From an uncultured Planctomycetota bacterium (lineage in GTDB: Bacteria > Planctomycetota > Planctomycetia > Gemmatales > Gemmataceae), in NCBI GenBank assembly GCA_963849325.1, contig CAWKHF010000012.1, positions 288,001-352,000 of the forward strand: 64,000 nt of DNA. The letters are read 5' to 3'. Shown one piece after another: positions 5,459 to 25,844 of the stretch. A program made the translations under genes and the position numbers. Each line of letters opens with the position of its first letter. The first letter of the stretch is position 1. The notes beneath the pieces were generated by a model. That model was not told where the DNA came from and made no database searches. It saw only the letters and a list, made by a program, of their open reading frames with translations.

Positions 5459-5599
5459 TTAGCACTCGCGCATTTTCCGCAGTGCGGCCCGGACGCGCTG
5501 CTTGGCCAGACGAGTTTGTCGTTCTTTCTTGCGTTGCCGGCGCTTGAGCCGCTGCAACGCGGCCAGAAACCGCGGAGTCTCTGGCTCGCCATAGATCAT
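5459..5599 (-). CDS. Small basic hypothetical protein (46 aa)
   Basis: MIYGEPETPRFLAALQRLKRRQRKKERQ... with GGAG-like SD upstream; no family recognised. Confidence 0.35.
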   Translation of the reverse strand: MIYGEPETPRFLAALQRLKRRQRKKERQTRLAKQRVRAALRKMREC

Positions 5600-5711
5600 G
5601 GCGACCGCTCCTTTCCAGGGGTATCCGCTGTTGTCCTCCCTCCGCCTATTCCATCTTATGCGATCGTTACGACACGCTGTCAATAGCCTTGTCGAAGGAT
5701 TTGTCGAGATC

Positions 5712-5741
5712 GTTTCGCCGCGCTCTGGAGCGCGGCGAAAC
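5712..5741. terminator. GC-rich hairpin immediately after the nrdJ stop
   Basis: GTTTCGCCGCGCTC-TG-GAGCGCGGCGAAAC inverted repeat. Confidence 0.5.
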
Positions 5742-8700
5742 TCAACTGCACCCCGAAGTAGCCCCACACGTATCGCACTTGCAGCAGCGCCGCTGCGCAC
5801 CAAGGTCAGTTGGCCGCACTCGCTGCACGGATCGCCCTCGTAACCTTTCAGCCGTGCTTGTCGGATCTTCTGCTCCATGCTCTGCTCGCGCAGGTCGGCG
5901 ACGTGCCGTTCTTGTGTCCGTTGCCGTTGCTCTGTTCGCGCAGCGGCGTCAGGTGGCCGCTGCGCGGCGTGGCGAACGCCTTGGATACCGGCTGCGGCTC
6001 GACGATGCGCTCCTCGACCACCTCCTCCGCCTCGAAGGCCGGCTCGTCGCGCTCGCGGTGCAGGGCGTCGCCGCGCAGATCCTCCGCCTCGACCTGGGCC
6101 AGGTCGTGCCGGCCCAGGTAGGTGATGGCCAGCTCGCGGAAGATGTAGTCGATGATCGACGTCGTCATCTTGATGTGCGGGTTGCCCTGGACCACGCCGT
6201 TCGGCTCGAAGCGCGTGAACACAAAGGCGTCCACGTACTCCTCCAGCGGTACGCCATGTTGCAGGCCGAGCGAAATGGCGATGGCGAAACAGTTGGTCAT
6301 GCTGCGGAAGGCGGCACCTTCCTTGTGCATGTCGAGGAAGATCTCGCCGAGCGTGCCGTCCTCGTACTCGCCGGTGCGCAGATACATCTTGTGGTTGCCG
6401 ATGCGGGCCTTCTGGGTGTAGCCGGCGCGGCGATCGGGCAGGCGGCGACGGTTGGCGATATAGCGATAGACGATCTTCTCGGCAATGCGAACGGCGTCGG
6501 CCTTCGGCTCGTCGTCAGCCGATTCGGCGACCTCGGCGTCGAGGTCCGGGGCGTCGGCGACGCTGTTGAGCGGCTGGCTGAGCTTGGAGCCGTCGCGGTA
6601 CAGGGCGTTGGCCTTGAGCATGAGCTGCCAACTCAGCTGGTAGGCGCTCTTAACGTCGTCGAGGGTGGCGTTGTGCGGCATATTGATCGTCTTGCTAGAT
6701 CGCACCACTGACGAACGGCTGGGCCGCCGCCATCATGCGGATGTGCGATTCCGCCGACAGGAAACGCTGGCCGAGCTTGCCGCACTTGTTGGCGCAGTCG
6801 AAGATGGGCAGGTGTTCCGGCCTGCAGGTGCGGCGCCCCCTCGACGGTCATCGTGCCGCACACGTGGTTGTTGGCCTCGGCAATCTGCTCCCGGCTGAAA
6901 CCCAGTGCCGTCAGCAGATCGAAACCGGGACGGTCGATCTGTTCGAGCGTGAAGCCGAGCCGGCCGGTCAACACATCGTCGCCGACGGTCCAGCGGTTGA
7001 AGGCGAAGGGCAACTCGAAGACGGCCGGCAGCATCGCCTCGATGCGCTGAAGCACGTCATCGGGGAAGCCCTTGGCCCGCAGCGTGGCGGCGTTGATGTG
7101 CGGACAGCCGTGCAGCGTGCCGGCCCCACGGCAGTAACGCACGATGTCCTCGATCTGCCGCGGCGTGTAGCCCAGCCGCGCCAGCGCCGGCGGGATCGAG
7201 GCGTTGATGATCTTGAAGTAGCCGCCGCCGGCCAGCTTCTTGAACTTGACCAGGGCGAAGTCCGGCTCGATGCCCGTCGTGTCGCAATCCATTACCAGAG
7301 CTATAGTCCCGGTCGGAGCAATACATGTGGATTGCGCGTTGCGATAGCCGTGCTTCTCGCCCAGTTCGACCATGCGATCCGACTCGCGCGCGAGCGGCGT
7401 CGAGCAGATAATCCGGACAGAAGCGCGGGTCGATGCCGACGGGCGTGATGGTCAGCCCCTCGTAGTCATCCTTGGGAGCGTCGTAGGCCGCCAGCCGGTG
7501 ATTGCGGACGACGCGCAGCATGGCCTCGCGGTTGGCCTCGTAGCGCGAGAACGGCCCGACCTCGGCGGCCATCTCCGCCGAGGTGGCGTAGGAGACGGCG
7601 TGCATGAGAGCGGTGACGGCGGCGCACCAGGCCCGGCCCTCATGCGAATCGTAGGGCAGCCCCTGTACCATCAAGAGCGATCCCATGTTCGCATAGCCCA
7701 ATCCCAGCGTGCGGTAATCATAAGACTTCTGCGCCACCGCCACGCTCGGGAACTGCGCCATGTAGACGGAGATCTCCAGGATCAGCGTCCACAGCCGCGT
7801 GGCGTGGCGGAAGGAACCCACGTCGAACCGGCCGGTGGCGGCGTCGTAGAACTTGAGCAAGTTCAAGGACGCGAGATTGCATGCGGTATCATCTATGAAC
7901 ATATATTCACTACAAGGATTGGACGCATTGATGCGTCCGTCGGCTGGGCAAGTGTGCCATTCGTTGACGGTGGTGTCGAACTGCACGCCGGGGTCGGCGC
8001 AGGACCAGGCCGCAAAGGTGATCTGTTCCCACAGTTCGCGGGCGCGCAGCGTCTTGCGCGGCTTGGGCGCTCGTCCCTCGGCCCGCGCTTTCTCGCTCTC
8101 CGTCCGCCAGTACAGGTGCCAGGGTCCGTCTTTCTGCGCCGCCTCCATGAAGTCGTTGGTGATGCGCACCGAGTTGTTGCTGTTCTGGCCGGAGACGGTG
8201 AAGTACGCCTTGGAGTTCCAGTCGGTGTTGTACTCCTCGATCTTCAGCGATGTGACGCCCTGCTCGGCCAGCTGCAGGACGCGCTCGACGTAGTTGAGCG
8301 GCACCAGGGCGGCGCGGGCCTCGGCAATCGCCCGGCGCAGGTCATGGTTGCGCTGGCGGTTCAGCCGTTCGTCGGCGTTGGGCCAGTTGGCGCACGCCTT
8401 GAGGATGGCGTTGAGATGGCGGTTGAGCAGCCGCGAGCCAGCGACCAGTGCCGCCACTTTGGCCTCTTCGACCATCTTCCAGCTGATGAATTCCTCGATA
8501 TCTGGATGATCGAGATCTAAAATAACCATTTTAGCCGCTCTGCGCGTGGTCCCCCCCGATTTAATCGCTCCGGCGGCGCGATCGCCGATCTTGAGAAAAC
8601 TCATCAGGCCGCTGGATTTGCCGCCGCCGGACAGTGGTTCGCCCTCACCGCGCAAAGAAGAGAAATTCGATCCCGTACCACTTCCATATTTAAAGATACG

Positions 8701-10407
8701 TGCCTCGCGGACCCACAGGTCCATGATGCCGCCTTCGTTCACGAGATCGTCCTGGATGGACTGGATGAAGCAGTTGTGTACAAGTCGGCCGGCGCACCAG
8801 AATTCGCCGGCTGCCGTCTGGAGGTCGTAAACCAACTCGGCTCCGGCCTTGCAACGTCCGTTGACCAGTACGGTAGATGGCCTGAGATGGGCTGCGGCTC
8901 CGACCAAGCTGAGCGCCATCTCCTCCTTTTTCGCTTCATGGGTGAAGCCGATTCGTTCCGCAAATAACTCACGCGAGTGCCGATCCCAGATGTTCAGGTA
9001 ATAGCAATCCTTGCGGTTGAAATCGGTGCGATCATCACTGGATTCGGCCACACAGGCGAAGATGCCGAGCGAACAGAGAAGGGCGTGCGCCTTTTCGATG
9101 ACGTCCCAACTTGTGTTGACGAGGCAAACCTTTTCTGCACTGACGTGTCCATCACTATCGAACAATCCTTGCAAAAACGGCCGTACAAAGTTTGCTCCCG
9201 AGCGAAGAACCCACTCGGGCACCATTTTGGCTGACGTGTGATTCCAGAGGCCCAGCCGCATCCAGAAGTGCCGTCCGGCCGCTCCGTAGCCGCGAATGGA
9301 ATGTCCCCAATGAAAGTCGGTCACGGTATGAGGCACGCCGTGTTTCTCGACGATGGCCAGCACCCGACGCAGTTCCGCCCCGGTGTTCACCTTCAACTCC
9401 CAGGTATCGCTGGTAGCCGAAGCGGGACGGCCGCTGAACCCATCCCCCACCATCAGGCCACTGATCCAGGCCAACTCCGCATCGACTTGCAACAGTCCGC
9501 ACGGGACGGGGAGGCACTCCGGTAGCAGCGGAACACGGGACAGGACCAGATGGTCTTTGCCAACCTCAAGGTCTCCCGCTCGTTTCTCTTGCAACTCCCC
9601 CTGGCCGTTCTGCACAAAAACAACGTGGTCCCCTGTCAATCGAATCGAGCTGCCGTCGGCCAGGTCAAGGCGGACCACAAAGCGCTTGCCGTTACAGACG
9701 GCCGCTTGGATCGGTGTCGGACGACCAAAACGGTCGAAGGCGGACAGCTTGACGCCCGATTGGACGGCCCGTACCACTTCGCCGACGGGTATCAATCCCC
9801 GATCGGTATTCACCAATTCGTCGTAAGGCAAACACGCATGCGGAGCGGGATGTTCGTATGCGGATGTGGAGCGCACGACTTGCTTGGTCTGCGGATCGAC
9901 GCGGTAATGTCCCTGGGCGGGTCCGTCGATGCCGTAGGCCCAGAACAGGCCGGTGTTGAACCACTGCGGCGAGTTCGGCGCCGCCATCTGCGCCGCCAGC
10001 ATGTAGCAGACTTCGTCGTGGAAGGCGCGGGCGTCGGCCTCCGACGAGAAGTAGCCACCCTTCCAGCCCCAGTAGCTCCAGCAGCCGGCCAGGCGGCGGA
10101 ACACCTGACGCGCGTCGGTCTCCTGGGCGTTGCGCGGATCGCCGGAGACCGGCACGCTGCGCTGCAGCCACTCCGGCACGCCCTCCTCGGCAACGCGCTG
10201 GCCCTGCACCGGCACGCCGGCCTTGCGGAAGTATTTCTGCGCCAGCACGTCCACCGCAACCTGCGACCAGCCTTCGGGGGCCAGCAGGTCTTTCAGCTCG
10301 AAGACTACCGAGCCGTCCGGGTTGACGATGCGTGAGGTCCGCGGGACGAACGCGAAAGCGGCGAACGGATCGGCCCCGGCCGTGGTGTAATGACGTGTGA
10401 TTTCCAT
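5742..10407 (-). CDS. nrdJ: Class II (B12-dependent) ribonucleotide reductase, intein-containing, several frameshifts
   Basis: [42 protein letters not shown]-terminal LRTGEYEDG and CSECG...[11 protein letters not shown]; assembled from ORFs 7057-10431, 6633-7373, 5848-6708 and the tail. Confidence 0.95.
8773..9834 (-). mobile_element. Intein with LAGLIDADG homing endonuclease in NrdJ (354 aa, in frame)
   Basis: Starts CLPYDELV, block B LTGDH, endonuclease motifs ISGLMVGDG and [10 protein letters not shown], ends LVHN followed by extein Cys (CFIQS); lower GC than host exteins. Confidence 0.95.
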
Positions 10408-10562
10408 GAGAGATTTCGCGAAGAAGGTCACTCGACCGATCGCGGCCGCCGAGGGCTGGAGTCTCGGGCCGGCCGGACGGAGGGAGCGGCTGTCGGTCTA
10501 GCGGTAAACAAGTGTACCGCAAACGGTTGACGGTTGTACACAGCAAAATTCGTGAATGGGGC

Positions 10563-12255
10563 TCACCCCGCCGGCTCGGCGCCGACGACGAACGGCAGCG
10601 TGAGTCCCTTCTGGTCTTGGTACTTGCCACGCTTGTCGCCGTAGCTGGTCTGGCACACGGCTTCGCCGCGCAGAAACAGGATCTGGGCGATGCCCTCGCC
10701 GGCATAGATCTTCGCCGGCAGGGGAGTCGTATTGGAGATCTCGATGGTCACTTTTCCGCGCCACTCGGGCTCCAGGGGCGTTACATTCACGATAATGCCG
10801 CAATTGTGCGTGAAGACCCCGGCTTCGAGCGCGAAGTTAGCGGCCTCGGGGACGGTGAGGCAGTAAACGTCGTGGATGCCGGGAACCGAGCGAATGGCAG
10901 CAACCTTGTGGTTGCGTTGGGGGCGATGGCCGCGGAACGCTTCGATCAATCCAGGGAAGCGGCGAAACACGGAGCGATCGCAGTTCAACAAACGCGCGGC
11001 GGCGCGGACGGAGCCTGTCTCGTGGAGTGCGGCTCGCACGATTTCCTCGGTAATCTCCTGTCGCGTTCGGATGGCGCGGGCCACCTCCGCTTGCTTGCGT
11101 CGGCGGCTGCCGTCATCCTTGGCCCAAGCGGAGCGCGTCAGGCCTGCGATTGCCGTTCGCGCTCGGCGGGATCGAGGTAACGGCGGAGCATGGCTTGCCG
11201 GTGCGCTTCGCGGGTGGCATCCGAGATGTCCTGACGCTGAGCCAGCAGACGGTCACGAGCGATGGCGTACTCTTCGTCGTGCCAAAAACGCATCGCACGT
11301 TCTCGTTGCGACAACGAATACCGGGCCCGCCATTCCGGATCTTCCCGCAGGGCCGCCAGCGCCGCCCGAATGGCCGCGCTGTGCTCGTCGGGGTCGAAGT
11401 CTTCTCCATAACTCTCCGCGTTATGATGGCGGATGTGCTCGTTGACGCCCATCCGCACGATGTTCCACGGACGGTTGTTGCGCCGGTCGTGATCGACGTG
11501 GTGCCGATGCGTGTCGGGAAGATTGGGATACACCTGATGGCGGAGGTTCCAATCGTCGGCCAGCCGGTGCGTCGGGTAGAGGTAGCCGTTCAATGGCTGG
11601 TAGACAATCTCATACCCGCGCGACAAGTGGCGGTACAGCGGCATGAGCGAATCGCCGGGCGCAGTTGATTCGCCTCGGTCATGCGGCCATCGCGCCGCAG
11701 GAAGAGATGGTCCGGGGTGCAAAAGATCGATTCGCCGTTGTCGAGGACGATTTCTTGTAAGGCGTCGCGGCCGATGTAGCGGGGCTGTTCGAGCAGCGTC
11801 ACCATGATCCGGCCGTGCGGGCCGATGCTATAGCCCCAGAACATCTCTCCCGCCTCAGCCCGCCGGGCCATCTCCTCCAGCGTCGGGGCGCTACCGTCCA
11901 CCAGGGCGACGCGGGTGTCGCCGCGGAAACAACGCGCATACGTCGATTTCCCGACGCAGACGCAGAGAATATCGCGTGGGATCTCCAGATACTCCACGGT
12001 TTCGGCGAGTGCGAAGCTGTTCGGGGGAATGAGACAATAATCCCCTTCAATGTCCACGAATGACGCCGGATCGAAGTTCTTGGGATCGACGACGGCGCAG
12101 CGGGCGTTGGTAAACACTTTGAAGTGCCGGCCGACGCGGACATCGTAGCCGTAGCTGGAGACGCCGTAGGAGATCACGCCCGGACGCAGGGCGCTTTCGG
12201 CGAACGGCTCAATCTTGATCTCGCGCAGGATCTGCCAGTCGGCGAGCACGCCCAT
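10563..12255 (-). CDS. dcd: dCTP deaminase, intein-containing
   Basis: [61 protein letters not shown]. Confidence 0.95.
10803..11931 (-). mobile_element. Intein with HNH endonuclease in dCTP deaminase (~375 aa, two apparent frameshifts)
   Basis: Starts [13 protein letters not shown], block B CTPDH, HNH motif [12 protein letters not shown]...EH..HH, ends [21 protein letters not shown] then extein Cys. Confidence 0.92.
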
Positions 12256-24212: not shown

Positions 24213-25567
24213 ATGTCGCCGGAAGCCATCGGGCCGGAACGTCTGCCGCCGCAGAACCTCGACGCCGAGCGTTCCGTCCTCGGCAGCATGTTGCGCGACA
24301 ACGACGCCATCAGCGTCGTCGTGCAGATCATCACCGCCGAGAGCTTCTACGCCGACGCCCATCGCAAAATCTTCCAGGCCATCTCCGATATCAACGACAA
24401 GGGCGGCCAACCCGTCGATCTGGTCATCCTCGCCGAAGAGCTAAGCAAGCGCGGCCAGCTGGAGGACGTCGGCCGCGCCGCCTACCTGGCGGAGCTGTGG
24501 GACGCGGCCCCGACGGCGGCCAACGCCGAGTATTACGCCCAGATCGTCCGCGACAAGGCCATCGTCCGCAGCCTCATCCACGCCAGCACCGAGATCCTCC
24601 GCGACGCCTACGAGCAGGGCCAGCCCGCCGAGGAACTGCTGGAGGGGGCCGAGCGCAAGATCCTCGACGTGGCCCAGATGGGCGTCACCGGCCAGACGAT
24701 CACGCTGGAGCAGGCGATCACCGAGACGTATCGCCGCATCGACGATCGCGCCAGCGGCAAGCAGAAGGCGGGCGGCCTCTCGACCGGCTTCGCCGACCTC
24801 AACGAGATCACGGCCGGCCTGCACGACGGCGAACTGGTCATCATCGCGGCGCGGCCGAGCGTCGGAAAAACGGCCTTTGCGCTCGGCTATTGTCCGTAAT
24901 ATCATCGTCGAGGAAAAGGAGCCGGTCTTCTTCGTCAGTCTGGAGCAGTCGCGCATCGAGTTGGCCGAGCGCCTGCTGTGTTCGCAGGCCCGCGTGGACA
25001 GCCATCGCCTGCGCAAGGGCACGCTCGGCTCGCGACGACATGGATCGTCTCATCGACGCCGGCGGCGTGCTGCGCAACGGCAAGCTGTTCATCGACGACT
25101 CGCCGGTGCAGAGCATGTTGCGCATCGCGGCCAACGCCCGGCGTCTGAAACTGCGGCACGGCATCAAGCTCATCGTGATCGATTACTTGCAGCTGATCGA
25201 GCCGGACAACCGCCGCGATCCGCGTCAGGAGCAGGTGGCGCAGATCAGCCGCCGTCTCAAGGCGCTGGCCAAGGAATTGCAGATCCCGCTGGTCGCTCTG
25301 GCCCAGGTCAACCGCTCCTCGGAGGATCGTCAGGACCATCGGCCGCGATTGGCGGACTTAAGGGAGTCGGGAAGTATTGAGCAGGATGCGGACACCGTCA
25401 TGCTGCTGCACCGGCCCGATCGCTACGAACCGGGCCAGCACGAGGGCATCATCGAGGTGATTATCGGCAAGCAGCGCAACGGCCCGACCGGCGAGATCAC
25501 CCTCGCCTACCTCAAGCAGTTCATGCGTTACGAGGACTACGCCGCCGGCACGCCCTTCGACAGCTGA
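24213..25567 (+). CDS. dnaB: Replicative DNA helicase (frameshifts near 24890 and 25030)
   Basis: PPQNLDAERSVLG, AARPSVGKT, IVIDYLQL, LADLRESGSIEQDAD, KQRNGPTG. Confidence 0.96.
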
Positions 25568-25578
25568 CAGCAACGCTC

Positions 25579-25844
25579 AGAGTCTGTCCCAAAAGCCCCT
25601 CTCCCCCGCTTCGGGGGAGAGGGGTTGGGGTGAGGGGGCGAGAAACTCGCGGAAAGCGCACCCCCCTCACCCCAACCCCTCTCCCCCGCTTCGGGGGAGA
25701 GGGGTTGGGGTGAGGGGTTGGGGGTGAGGGGTTGGGGGTGAGGGGTTGGGGGTGAGGGGGCGAGAAACCCGCGGAAAGCGCACCCCCTCACCCCAACCCC
25801 TCTCCCCCGGAGTACCGGGGAGAGGGGCTTACCGGACAGACTCT
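25579..25844. repeat. Composite palindromic repeat/MITE-like element between convergent dnaB and CPBP genes
   Basis: Outer inverted repeat AGAGTCTGTCC...AAGCCCCTCTCCCC / GGGGAGAGGGGCTT...GGACAGACTCT enclosing CCCCTCTCCCCC-N-GGGGAGAGGGG hairpins and tandem GGTTGGGG(G)TGAGGG units. Confidence 0.75.

Follow-up and report, generated by a model that had tools for sequence, protein, structure and literature searches.

Why does a gene whose codons almost all end in G or C carry, on its catalytic motifs, short runs of synonymous codons that end in A or T? The question is raised by nrdJ, which encodes a ribonucleotide reductase (RNR) in an uncultured planctomycete of the family Gemmataceae. The gene lies in a stretch of 64,000 nucleotides (assembly GCA_963849325.1, contig CAWKHF010000012.1, positions 288,001 to 352,000), hereafter referred to as the window. 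A first-pass annotation of this stretch had described five such patches and had proposed that they represent either synonymous escape from homing endonucleases or scars left by the gain and loss of inteins. Our analysis revealed that the patches, here called islands, exist, that they coincide with real intein sites, and that they are lineage-specific and mosaic by site. An origin related to inteins is well supported. We propose that the islands are footprints of attack by intein homing endonucleases, most likely empty sites recoded in such a way that they resist cleavage, and we assign to this reading a probability of roughly 0.5.

Islands of A/T-ending codons coincide with intein sites

Judged by its predicted domains, the gene is a class II ribonucleotide reductase in which the barrel, the class II N-terminal domain and the C-terminal TSCPD domain are all present (Ribonuc_red_lgC PF02867, 3.4e-85 and 1.6e-15; Ribonuc_red_2_N PF08471, 3.5e-38; TSCPD PF12637, 3e-11). 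Its codons were read across the frame changes by a script, which yielded 1156 extein codons and 354 codons of a resident intein. Of the extein codons, 15.5% end in A or T, most densely in a small number of islands in which the encoded protein is unchanged (Table 1). The pattern that had been described, with mostly G/C-ending codons and short A/T patches, was confirmed for all five named stretches, each on the minus strand and at its expected place, the patch at RTLGLGY being weak. The resident 354-residue LAGLIDADG intein, a sixth island on its upstream flank and the breakage of the gene by assembly indels are additions to that description. When synonymous codons were permuted 5000 times among positions with the same amino acid, a mean of 0.01 non-overlapping 14-codon segments held at least 9 A/T-ending codons; nrdJ has four such segments, a number that none of the 5000 shuffles reached. 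The densest segment (11/14) was matched by a single shuffle in 5000.

Table 1. nrdJ, its resident intein and the islands and sites mapped on it. Positions refer to the window; a slash within a motif or between two positions marks the insertion point. A/T-ending codons were counted within 8 codons of each site, about 2 being expected at each. Occupancy is given among 120 multi-intein NrdJ homologs.
Feature	Positions	Strand	Site (boundary)	A/T-ending codons	Occupied in homologs	Remark
nrdJ, class II (B12-dependent) ribonucleotide reductase	5735..10431	minus				3' end approximate; at least 5 frame pieces
Resident intein, 354 aa, LAGLIDADG endonuclease	8773-9834	minus	a, HA/CLPYDEL...LVHN/CFIQ			
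Island on upstream flank of occupied site a, 16 codons	9835..9882	minus	a, HA/CF	4/16 (4/8 before the intein, 0/8 after)	52-54/120 (BLAST map)	all four upstream
Island b, empty site	8638..8703	minus	b, GSG/TG (8677/8676)	11/16	37/120	
Island c, empty site	8494..8571	minus	c, GGT/TR (8548/8547)	7/15	11/120	reaches about 18 codons downstream
Island e/f, two empty sites	7876..7929	minus	e, NP/CS (7915/7914); f, TA/CN (7882/7881)	e 10/15; f 6/15	e 73/120; f 48/120	windows of the two sites overlap
Weak island, RTLGLGY patch	7681..7725	minus		pattern xxx....x..x...x		no intein site assigned
Island g, empty site	7287..7334	minus	g, APTG/TIA (7308/7307)	9/15	71/120	
Empty site h	6676..6714	minus	h, GAISK/TIN (6691/6690)	3/15	21/120	not enriched; assembly frameshift adjoins

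Intein sites were defined independently of composition, from 120 multi-intein NrdJ homologs (the best 120 of 225 proteins of at least 2016 aa, with lengths of 2016-3228 aa), whose insertions were placed on the extein of the window by BLAST and by flank motifs. Seven recurrent sites were obtained (a, b, c, e, f, g and h; Table 1), along with a minor site, SMT/NC, occupied in two of these homologs. Strong islands were found at sites b, c, e, f and g, site a is enriched upstream only, and site h shows no enrichment. An intein site lies within five of the six islands, the RTLGLGY patch being the exception: no intein mapped there in any of the 120 homologs. The earlier claim that the patches mark intein sites therefore holds for four of its five (b, c, e/f and g), all with sites occupied in homologs, and fails for RTLGLGY. 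This weak island may be due to chance, or it may mark the site of an unsampled element such as an intron or a rare intein. A further candidate, designated site d (GVQ/FD, 22 cases in the BLAST map), was rejected as an artefact of alignments that stop before site e, since by motif it is occupied in 0/105; it had been counted in one early comparison of conserved columns and was left out of later counts and shuffles.

The association between composition and site is strong. Near the sites, 47 of 107 codons end in A or T, against 15.9 +/- 3.3 in the shuffles (maximum 31), and 47 was reached in none of 5000. The A/T-ending share is 0.43-0.57 within +/-10 codons of a site and 0.11-0.29 at a distance of 16-20 codons. 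In terms of conserved columns, it amounts to 0.46 near the sites and to 0.11 in 468 others (odds ratio 6.7, p 4.7e-14). Columns that are at least equally conserved show a share of 0.11-0.12 (457-468 columns), and long invariant motifs, such as SGQNSNNSV, are devoid of islands. Conservation as such thus does not produce islands.

At the scale of the genome, 225 segments with at least 9/14 A/T-ending codons were counted in 1,741,483 codons of 4325 stop-to-stop open reading frames (ORFs), a crude control given that the ORFs were picked by GC content at third codon positions (GC3) without a gene caller and may include antisense frames with coincident third positions. The nrdJ ORF fragment contains four of these segments, three in the extein and one in the endonuclease domain of the intein; one other ORF contains two, and all others have at most one. 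The Poisson probability of four segments in 1146 codons is 1.8e-5. This stricter count replaced a first genome-wide ORF scan, which was dropped because it consisted mostly of out-of-frame peptides from a frameshift-rich, GC-rich assembly. The shuffles, the comparison with other conserved motifs and the genome control all agree that the dips in GC3 are significant and are not equalled at other conserved motifs.

The frame of nrdJ changes near 7389, 6821 and 6697, at about 5900, and once more in the C-terminal zinc ribbon. We read these frameshifts as assembly indels and not as signs of decay, because the nrdJ genes of relatives are uninterrupted open frames of 1200-1650 aa, because the assembly consists of 14 contigs at a completeness of 84.7%, and because the three housekeeping genes looked up in the host genome, dnaB (C12:312774-313537), dnaE (C5:218887-219694) and recA (C6:92901-93685), are each split over two frames as well (3/3). 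The last observation led us to reject the possibility that nrdJ is a pseudogene. Housekeeping genes are split likewise in the relatives G002 and G007, both few-contig assemblies, and in G014. With so many small indels in the assembly, any pseudogene call in the host genome needs care. A search of sequencing runs returned small shares (at most 0.09) in soil metagenomes and no run with the whole stretch.

The resident intein starts with Cys and ends with His-Asn, and Cys is the first residue of the C-extein. Its LAGLIDADG_3 domain scored 47.9 bits (1.6e-12, cut-off 22.5), and its Intein_splicing match scored 26.2 bits, under the cut-off of 35.8. A/T-ending codons make up 33.4% of the intein, compared with 15.5% of the extein. 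The related loci L002, L003, L007 and L008 contain the same intein, which is missing from L004, L005, L006 and L009.

Other genes of this genome showed related features. The dCTP deaminase gene directly upstream of nrdJ (about 10560-11800, minus strand) also bears an intein, whose C-terminal Intein_splicing block (10803-10922) scored 24.1 bits, under the cut-off, and whose body extends over three frames. Outside the window, a SpoVR-like ORF of 904 aa (G000:C8:173795-176506) contains a LAGLIDADG intein at YGH/C...VVHN/CDFFKNN (LAGLIDADG_3, 47.9 bits). A/T-ending codons are not enriched in the extein on either side of this intein, which indicates that occupied sites in this genome do not all have islands. 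Some further genes have a single island that lies on a conserved motif. In dnaB (about 24300-25700 of the window, plus strand), small clusters of A/T-ending codons were recognized by eye at the P-loop (PSVGKTAFAL...) and at RESG/SIEQDAD, both of which we take to be canonical DnaB intein sites; recA shows none.

Distribution of islands and inteins among relatives

Codon alignments were built from the window gene, 29 genome relatives and 55 of 80 metagenome loci, only loci of at least 900 aa being used, which gave 85 rows. Near-site enrichment with p<1e-3, a per-sequence value to be taken as descriptive rather than as a test, was found in nine rows corresponding to eight distinct sequences: the window, L002, L003, L004 (identical to L040), L011, L013, L015 and L042. 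All are family kin or metagenome kin with 79% identity. Another 37 rows with a background of at most 0.30 missed this threshold, and none of the 39 A/T-richer rows reached it.

Among relatives, the set of islands varies from site to site. In L013, whose background is 0.05, islands are confined to a, e and f, and b shows 0/16. The only island of L052 is at g and that of L046 at e, while L002, which shares 91% protein identity with the window, has no e island (2/15). The e island is common to the window, L003 and L015, the latter belonging to another genus, nearly codon for codon and including the rare Ile codon ATA. More generally, L002, L003 and L015 have the island codons of the window in common with it more often than its remaining A/T-ending codons, whereas for L007-L009 the reverse holds. 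This pattern of sharing indicates that the turnover of islands is faster than that of the gene and that they pass from one lineage to another. They are kept even where A/T-ending codons otherwise make up only 4-5% of the gene (L011 and L013). They also occur in L002, L003 and L004, which are independent assemblies from the same genus, and this implies that they are not an assembly artefact.

The family search matched 118 of 121 genomes and recovered alleles in which an intein occupies a, b, e or g. Site b is occupied in L034, L125 and L130, site e in L031, L032, L033 and L129-L134, and site g in L120, L121, L123-L126 and L128; at c, f and h, the motif rules detected no intein among the family DNA loci. 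Two to four inteins interrupt the nrdJ gene of close relatives (up to 84% identity), from which it follows that invasion is frequent. In L034 (G014:C3:95000-103000), inteins occupy both b and e of nrdJ, and many frameshifts and stops interrupt the final third of the gene, owing either to an indel-rich assembly or to a decaying copy.

The flanks of occupied sites were compared at a, b, e and g only, in 55 sequences; L032, from another family, was dropped, and sites that could not be placed were skipped. The A/T-ending share was 0.29 at occupied sites against a background of 0.16 (+0.13, n=29), and 0.25 at empty sites against a background of 0.20 (+0.047, n=314). The intein bodies themselves have shares of 0.16-0.33. 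The empty-site islands of the window, with 0.45-0.7, lie above both the intein bodies and the average occupied flank. Codons are partially shared with occupied alleles at b and g. The closest flank of an occupied site disagrees at 6-9 of 16 third positions. An A/T-rich donor was sought among the 85 homologs and none was found: the nearest island matches lie within the genus, with the addition of L015 for e/f, and there is no low-GC outlier. Exact 20- and 23-base island strings had 0 matches each in viral contigs.

Origin of the islands

We first consider how endonuclease attack could have produced the islands. A homing endonuclease would break its site repeatedly until the site is either occupied by an intein or converted to a sequence that can no longer be cleaved, and the islands would represent the second outcome. 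Over about ten codons on either side of each site, the usual C- or G-ending codons would have been swapped for other synonymous codons, leaving the protein the same. The breaks may have been repaired from divergent, A/T-richer nrdJ alleles, or synonymous mutations may have arisen stepwise and been retained by selection; both routes may have contributed. In a genome whose codons nearly all end in G or C, a two-fold codon can change silently only to one that ends in A or T, which would explain the A/T composition. With regard to four-fold codons, those near the sites end in C, G, T and A in 6, 15, 9 and 7 cases, respectively, and those elsewhere in 208, 122, 17 and 20 cases. The preferred C is depleted near the sites (6/37 vs 208/367), while G, A and T are all increased. 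This loss of C with a rise in G, together with an A/T content of the islands above that of inteins and occupied flanks and with their persistence at 95% GC3, tends to favor cleavage resistance over neutral scars. To our knowledge, there is also no precise mechanism of intein loss at the DNA level that would spare the immediate flanks.

Several points weigh against recoding for resistance. LAGLIDADG recognition sites typically cover about 20-30 bases; the islands are longer, spanning 45-80 bases, island c is strongly asymmetric, and the windows of sites e and f overlap. Homing endonucleases are described as tolerating single synonymous changes (PMC3024317). Occupied flanks are on average more A/T-enriched than empty ones, as co-conversion predicts, and intein-bearing alleles of site b (L034 and L125) share TTT AAA (TAT) ... 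GGA ... AAT with island b. The relatives share ancestry, so their individual p-values overstate the enrichment. That the islands resist cleavage, and how the tracts came about, is what we infer from sequence comparison. A/T-rich empty flanks are also farther from occupied flanks than GC-rich empty flanks are (rho 0.5-0.74); since composition alone predicts this as well, it was counted for neither side.

The strongest alternative is that the islands are neutral scars. Inteins from A/T-richer donors would have co-converted the extein flanks and would later have been lost, leaving decaying ghost tracts with no effect on cleavage. Such an origin would account for the position of the tracts next to insertion sites, with a share that falls beyond 10 codons, and a conversion tract could well be tens of bases long and asymmetric in the manner of island c. 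It is also in agreement with the fact that inteins and occupied flanks are A/T-richer than host genes, that an intein-bearing site b allele shares several island codons, that blocks are common to different genera, and that invasion is frequent enough to leave close relatives with two to four inteins in nrdJ. Nevertheless, it would require four or five recent invasions and equally many precise losses in a lineage that now has one intein, and loss by recombination with an empty allele should overwrite the nearest flanks. The islands are moreover A/T-richer than the inteins and occupied flanks of the family, no A/T-rich donor was found among the 85 homologs and no exact match in viral contigs, and islands persist in genes at 95% GC3. 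We regard neutral scars as less probable than recoding for resistance, but the evidence is split and the data do not separate the two. Of the two mechanisms put forward in the first-pass annotation, their common element, the link to inteins, is supported, and the choice between them is not made by these data.

Codon-level adaptation unrelated to inteins, in which the use of rare codons on catalytic motifs would serve to slow translation or to influence the shape of the mRNA, appears improbable. The islands do lie on functionally central motifs (the NPCSE thiyl-radical loop and APTGT), and single islands are present on conserved motifs in some other genes. However, equally conserved motifs of nrdJ have only 11-12% A/T-ending codons, and 76 of the 85 homolog rows, including most of the GC-rich ones, are not enriched at the same motifs. 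The GC-rich NrdJ rows display no consistent, lineage-independent preference for the same rare codons there, the sites that are enriched vary among close relatives, and an Rfam scan of positions 5500-12000 of the window matched no family. An artefact of assembly or polishing in a frameshift-rich long-read assembly, for which the many indels, the split nrdJ, dnaB, dnaE and recA genes and a completeness of 84.7% in 14 contigs could be cited, is extremely improbable, given that the changes are protein-preserving substitutions and that the same island codons recur in independent assemblies of the genus and family.

A more specific proposal can tentatively be made, which we hold to be somewhat less probable than the attack itself: the islands may be selected, heritable immunity alleles, with a GC-rich bacterium silently rewriting endonuclease targets and lineages swapping the resulting patches.

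Significance and comparison with known systems

Inteins are usually viewed as near-neutral passengers against which hosts do not fight back. Silent patches on five or six homing sites of one essential gene, found in some lineages and missing from close kin, would constitute evidence at the sequence level that endonuclease attack leaves its mark on empty sites. If they make a site resistant, an arms race would be visible without experiment, inside an essential enzyme. A scan of third positions in GC-rich genomes could then locate homing sites, whether occupied or not. Should the islands be immunity alleles, composition would map past and present homing sites, including those of elements not yet known, of which RTLGLGY may be an example.

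The group I intron of plant mitochondrial cox1 offers one precedent, exonic co-conversion tracts having reportedly been used there as footprints of gain and loss. In both cases, an element is taken to have left its trace as a short tract next to an empty homing site. In cox1, however, the tract matches the donor exon and is accepted as a neutral scar, whereas for the tracts in nrdJ no donor match was found among the 85 homologs or in viral contigs, and they are marked by base composition. A second precedent is provided by RNR genes with several inteins; that of Trichodesmium erythraeum is said to contain four. These genes, including the 120 homologs used here, belong to the same gene family and have the same hot spots at catalytic motifs, but reports on them deal with occupied sites and the finding in nrdJ concerns empty ones.

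With regard to the inteins of haloarchaeal MCM, co-conversion of flanks and mcm alleles that resist invasion have been described (PMC10643990). As in nrdJ, there are several close intein sites in one essential gene; flanking codons travel with the intein and some empty alleles resist. The haloarchaeal resistance and co-conversion were described at the level of amino acids, with Pro or Ser after the site; in contrast, the NrdJ protein is unchanged and the synonymous runs of odd composition occur at five or six sites.

The yeast WHO elements are closer in that synonymous changes are involved: of 24 synonymous changes to the target, 8 conferred resistance, and positive selection acts on the target (bioRxiv 10.64898/2026.08.13.744650). 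In the case of WHO and FBA1 in Torulaspora, as in nrdJ, alleles differ in the sequence that a LAGLIDADG endonuclease targets; in the yeasts, this variation decides cleavage and some synonymous changes resist. The yeast system is eukaryotic, involves no inteins and had its resistance assayed, whereas the case of nrdJ is bacterial, involves inteins and is known from its sequence. In the literature searched, mostly at the level of titles and abstracts, nothing was found on runs of synonymous codons with odd composition at empty intein sites; the closest matches concern resistance at the amino-acid level and the yeast WHO elements. Set beside these systems, nrdJ stands out by a probable homing footprint made of synonymous codons of unusual composition, which recurs at many sites of a single bacterial gene.

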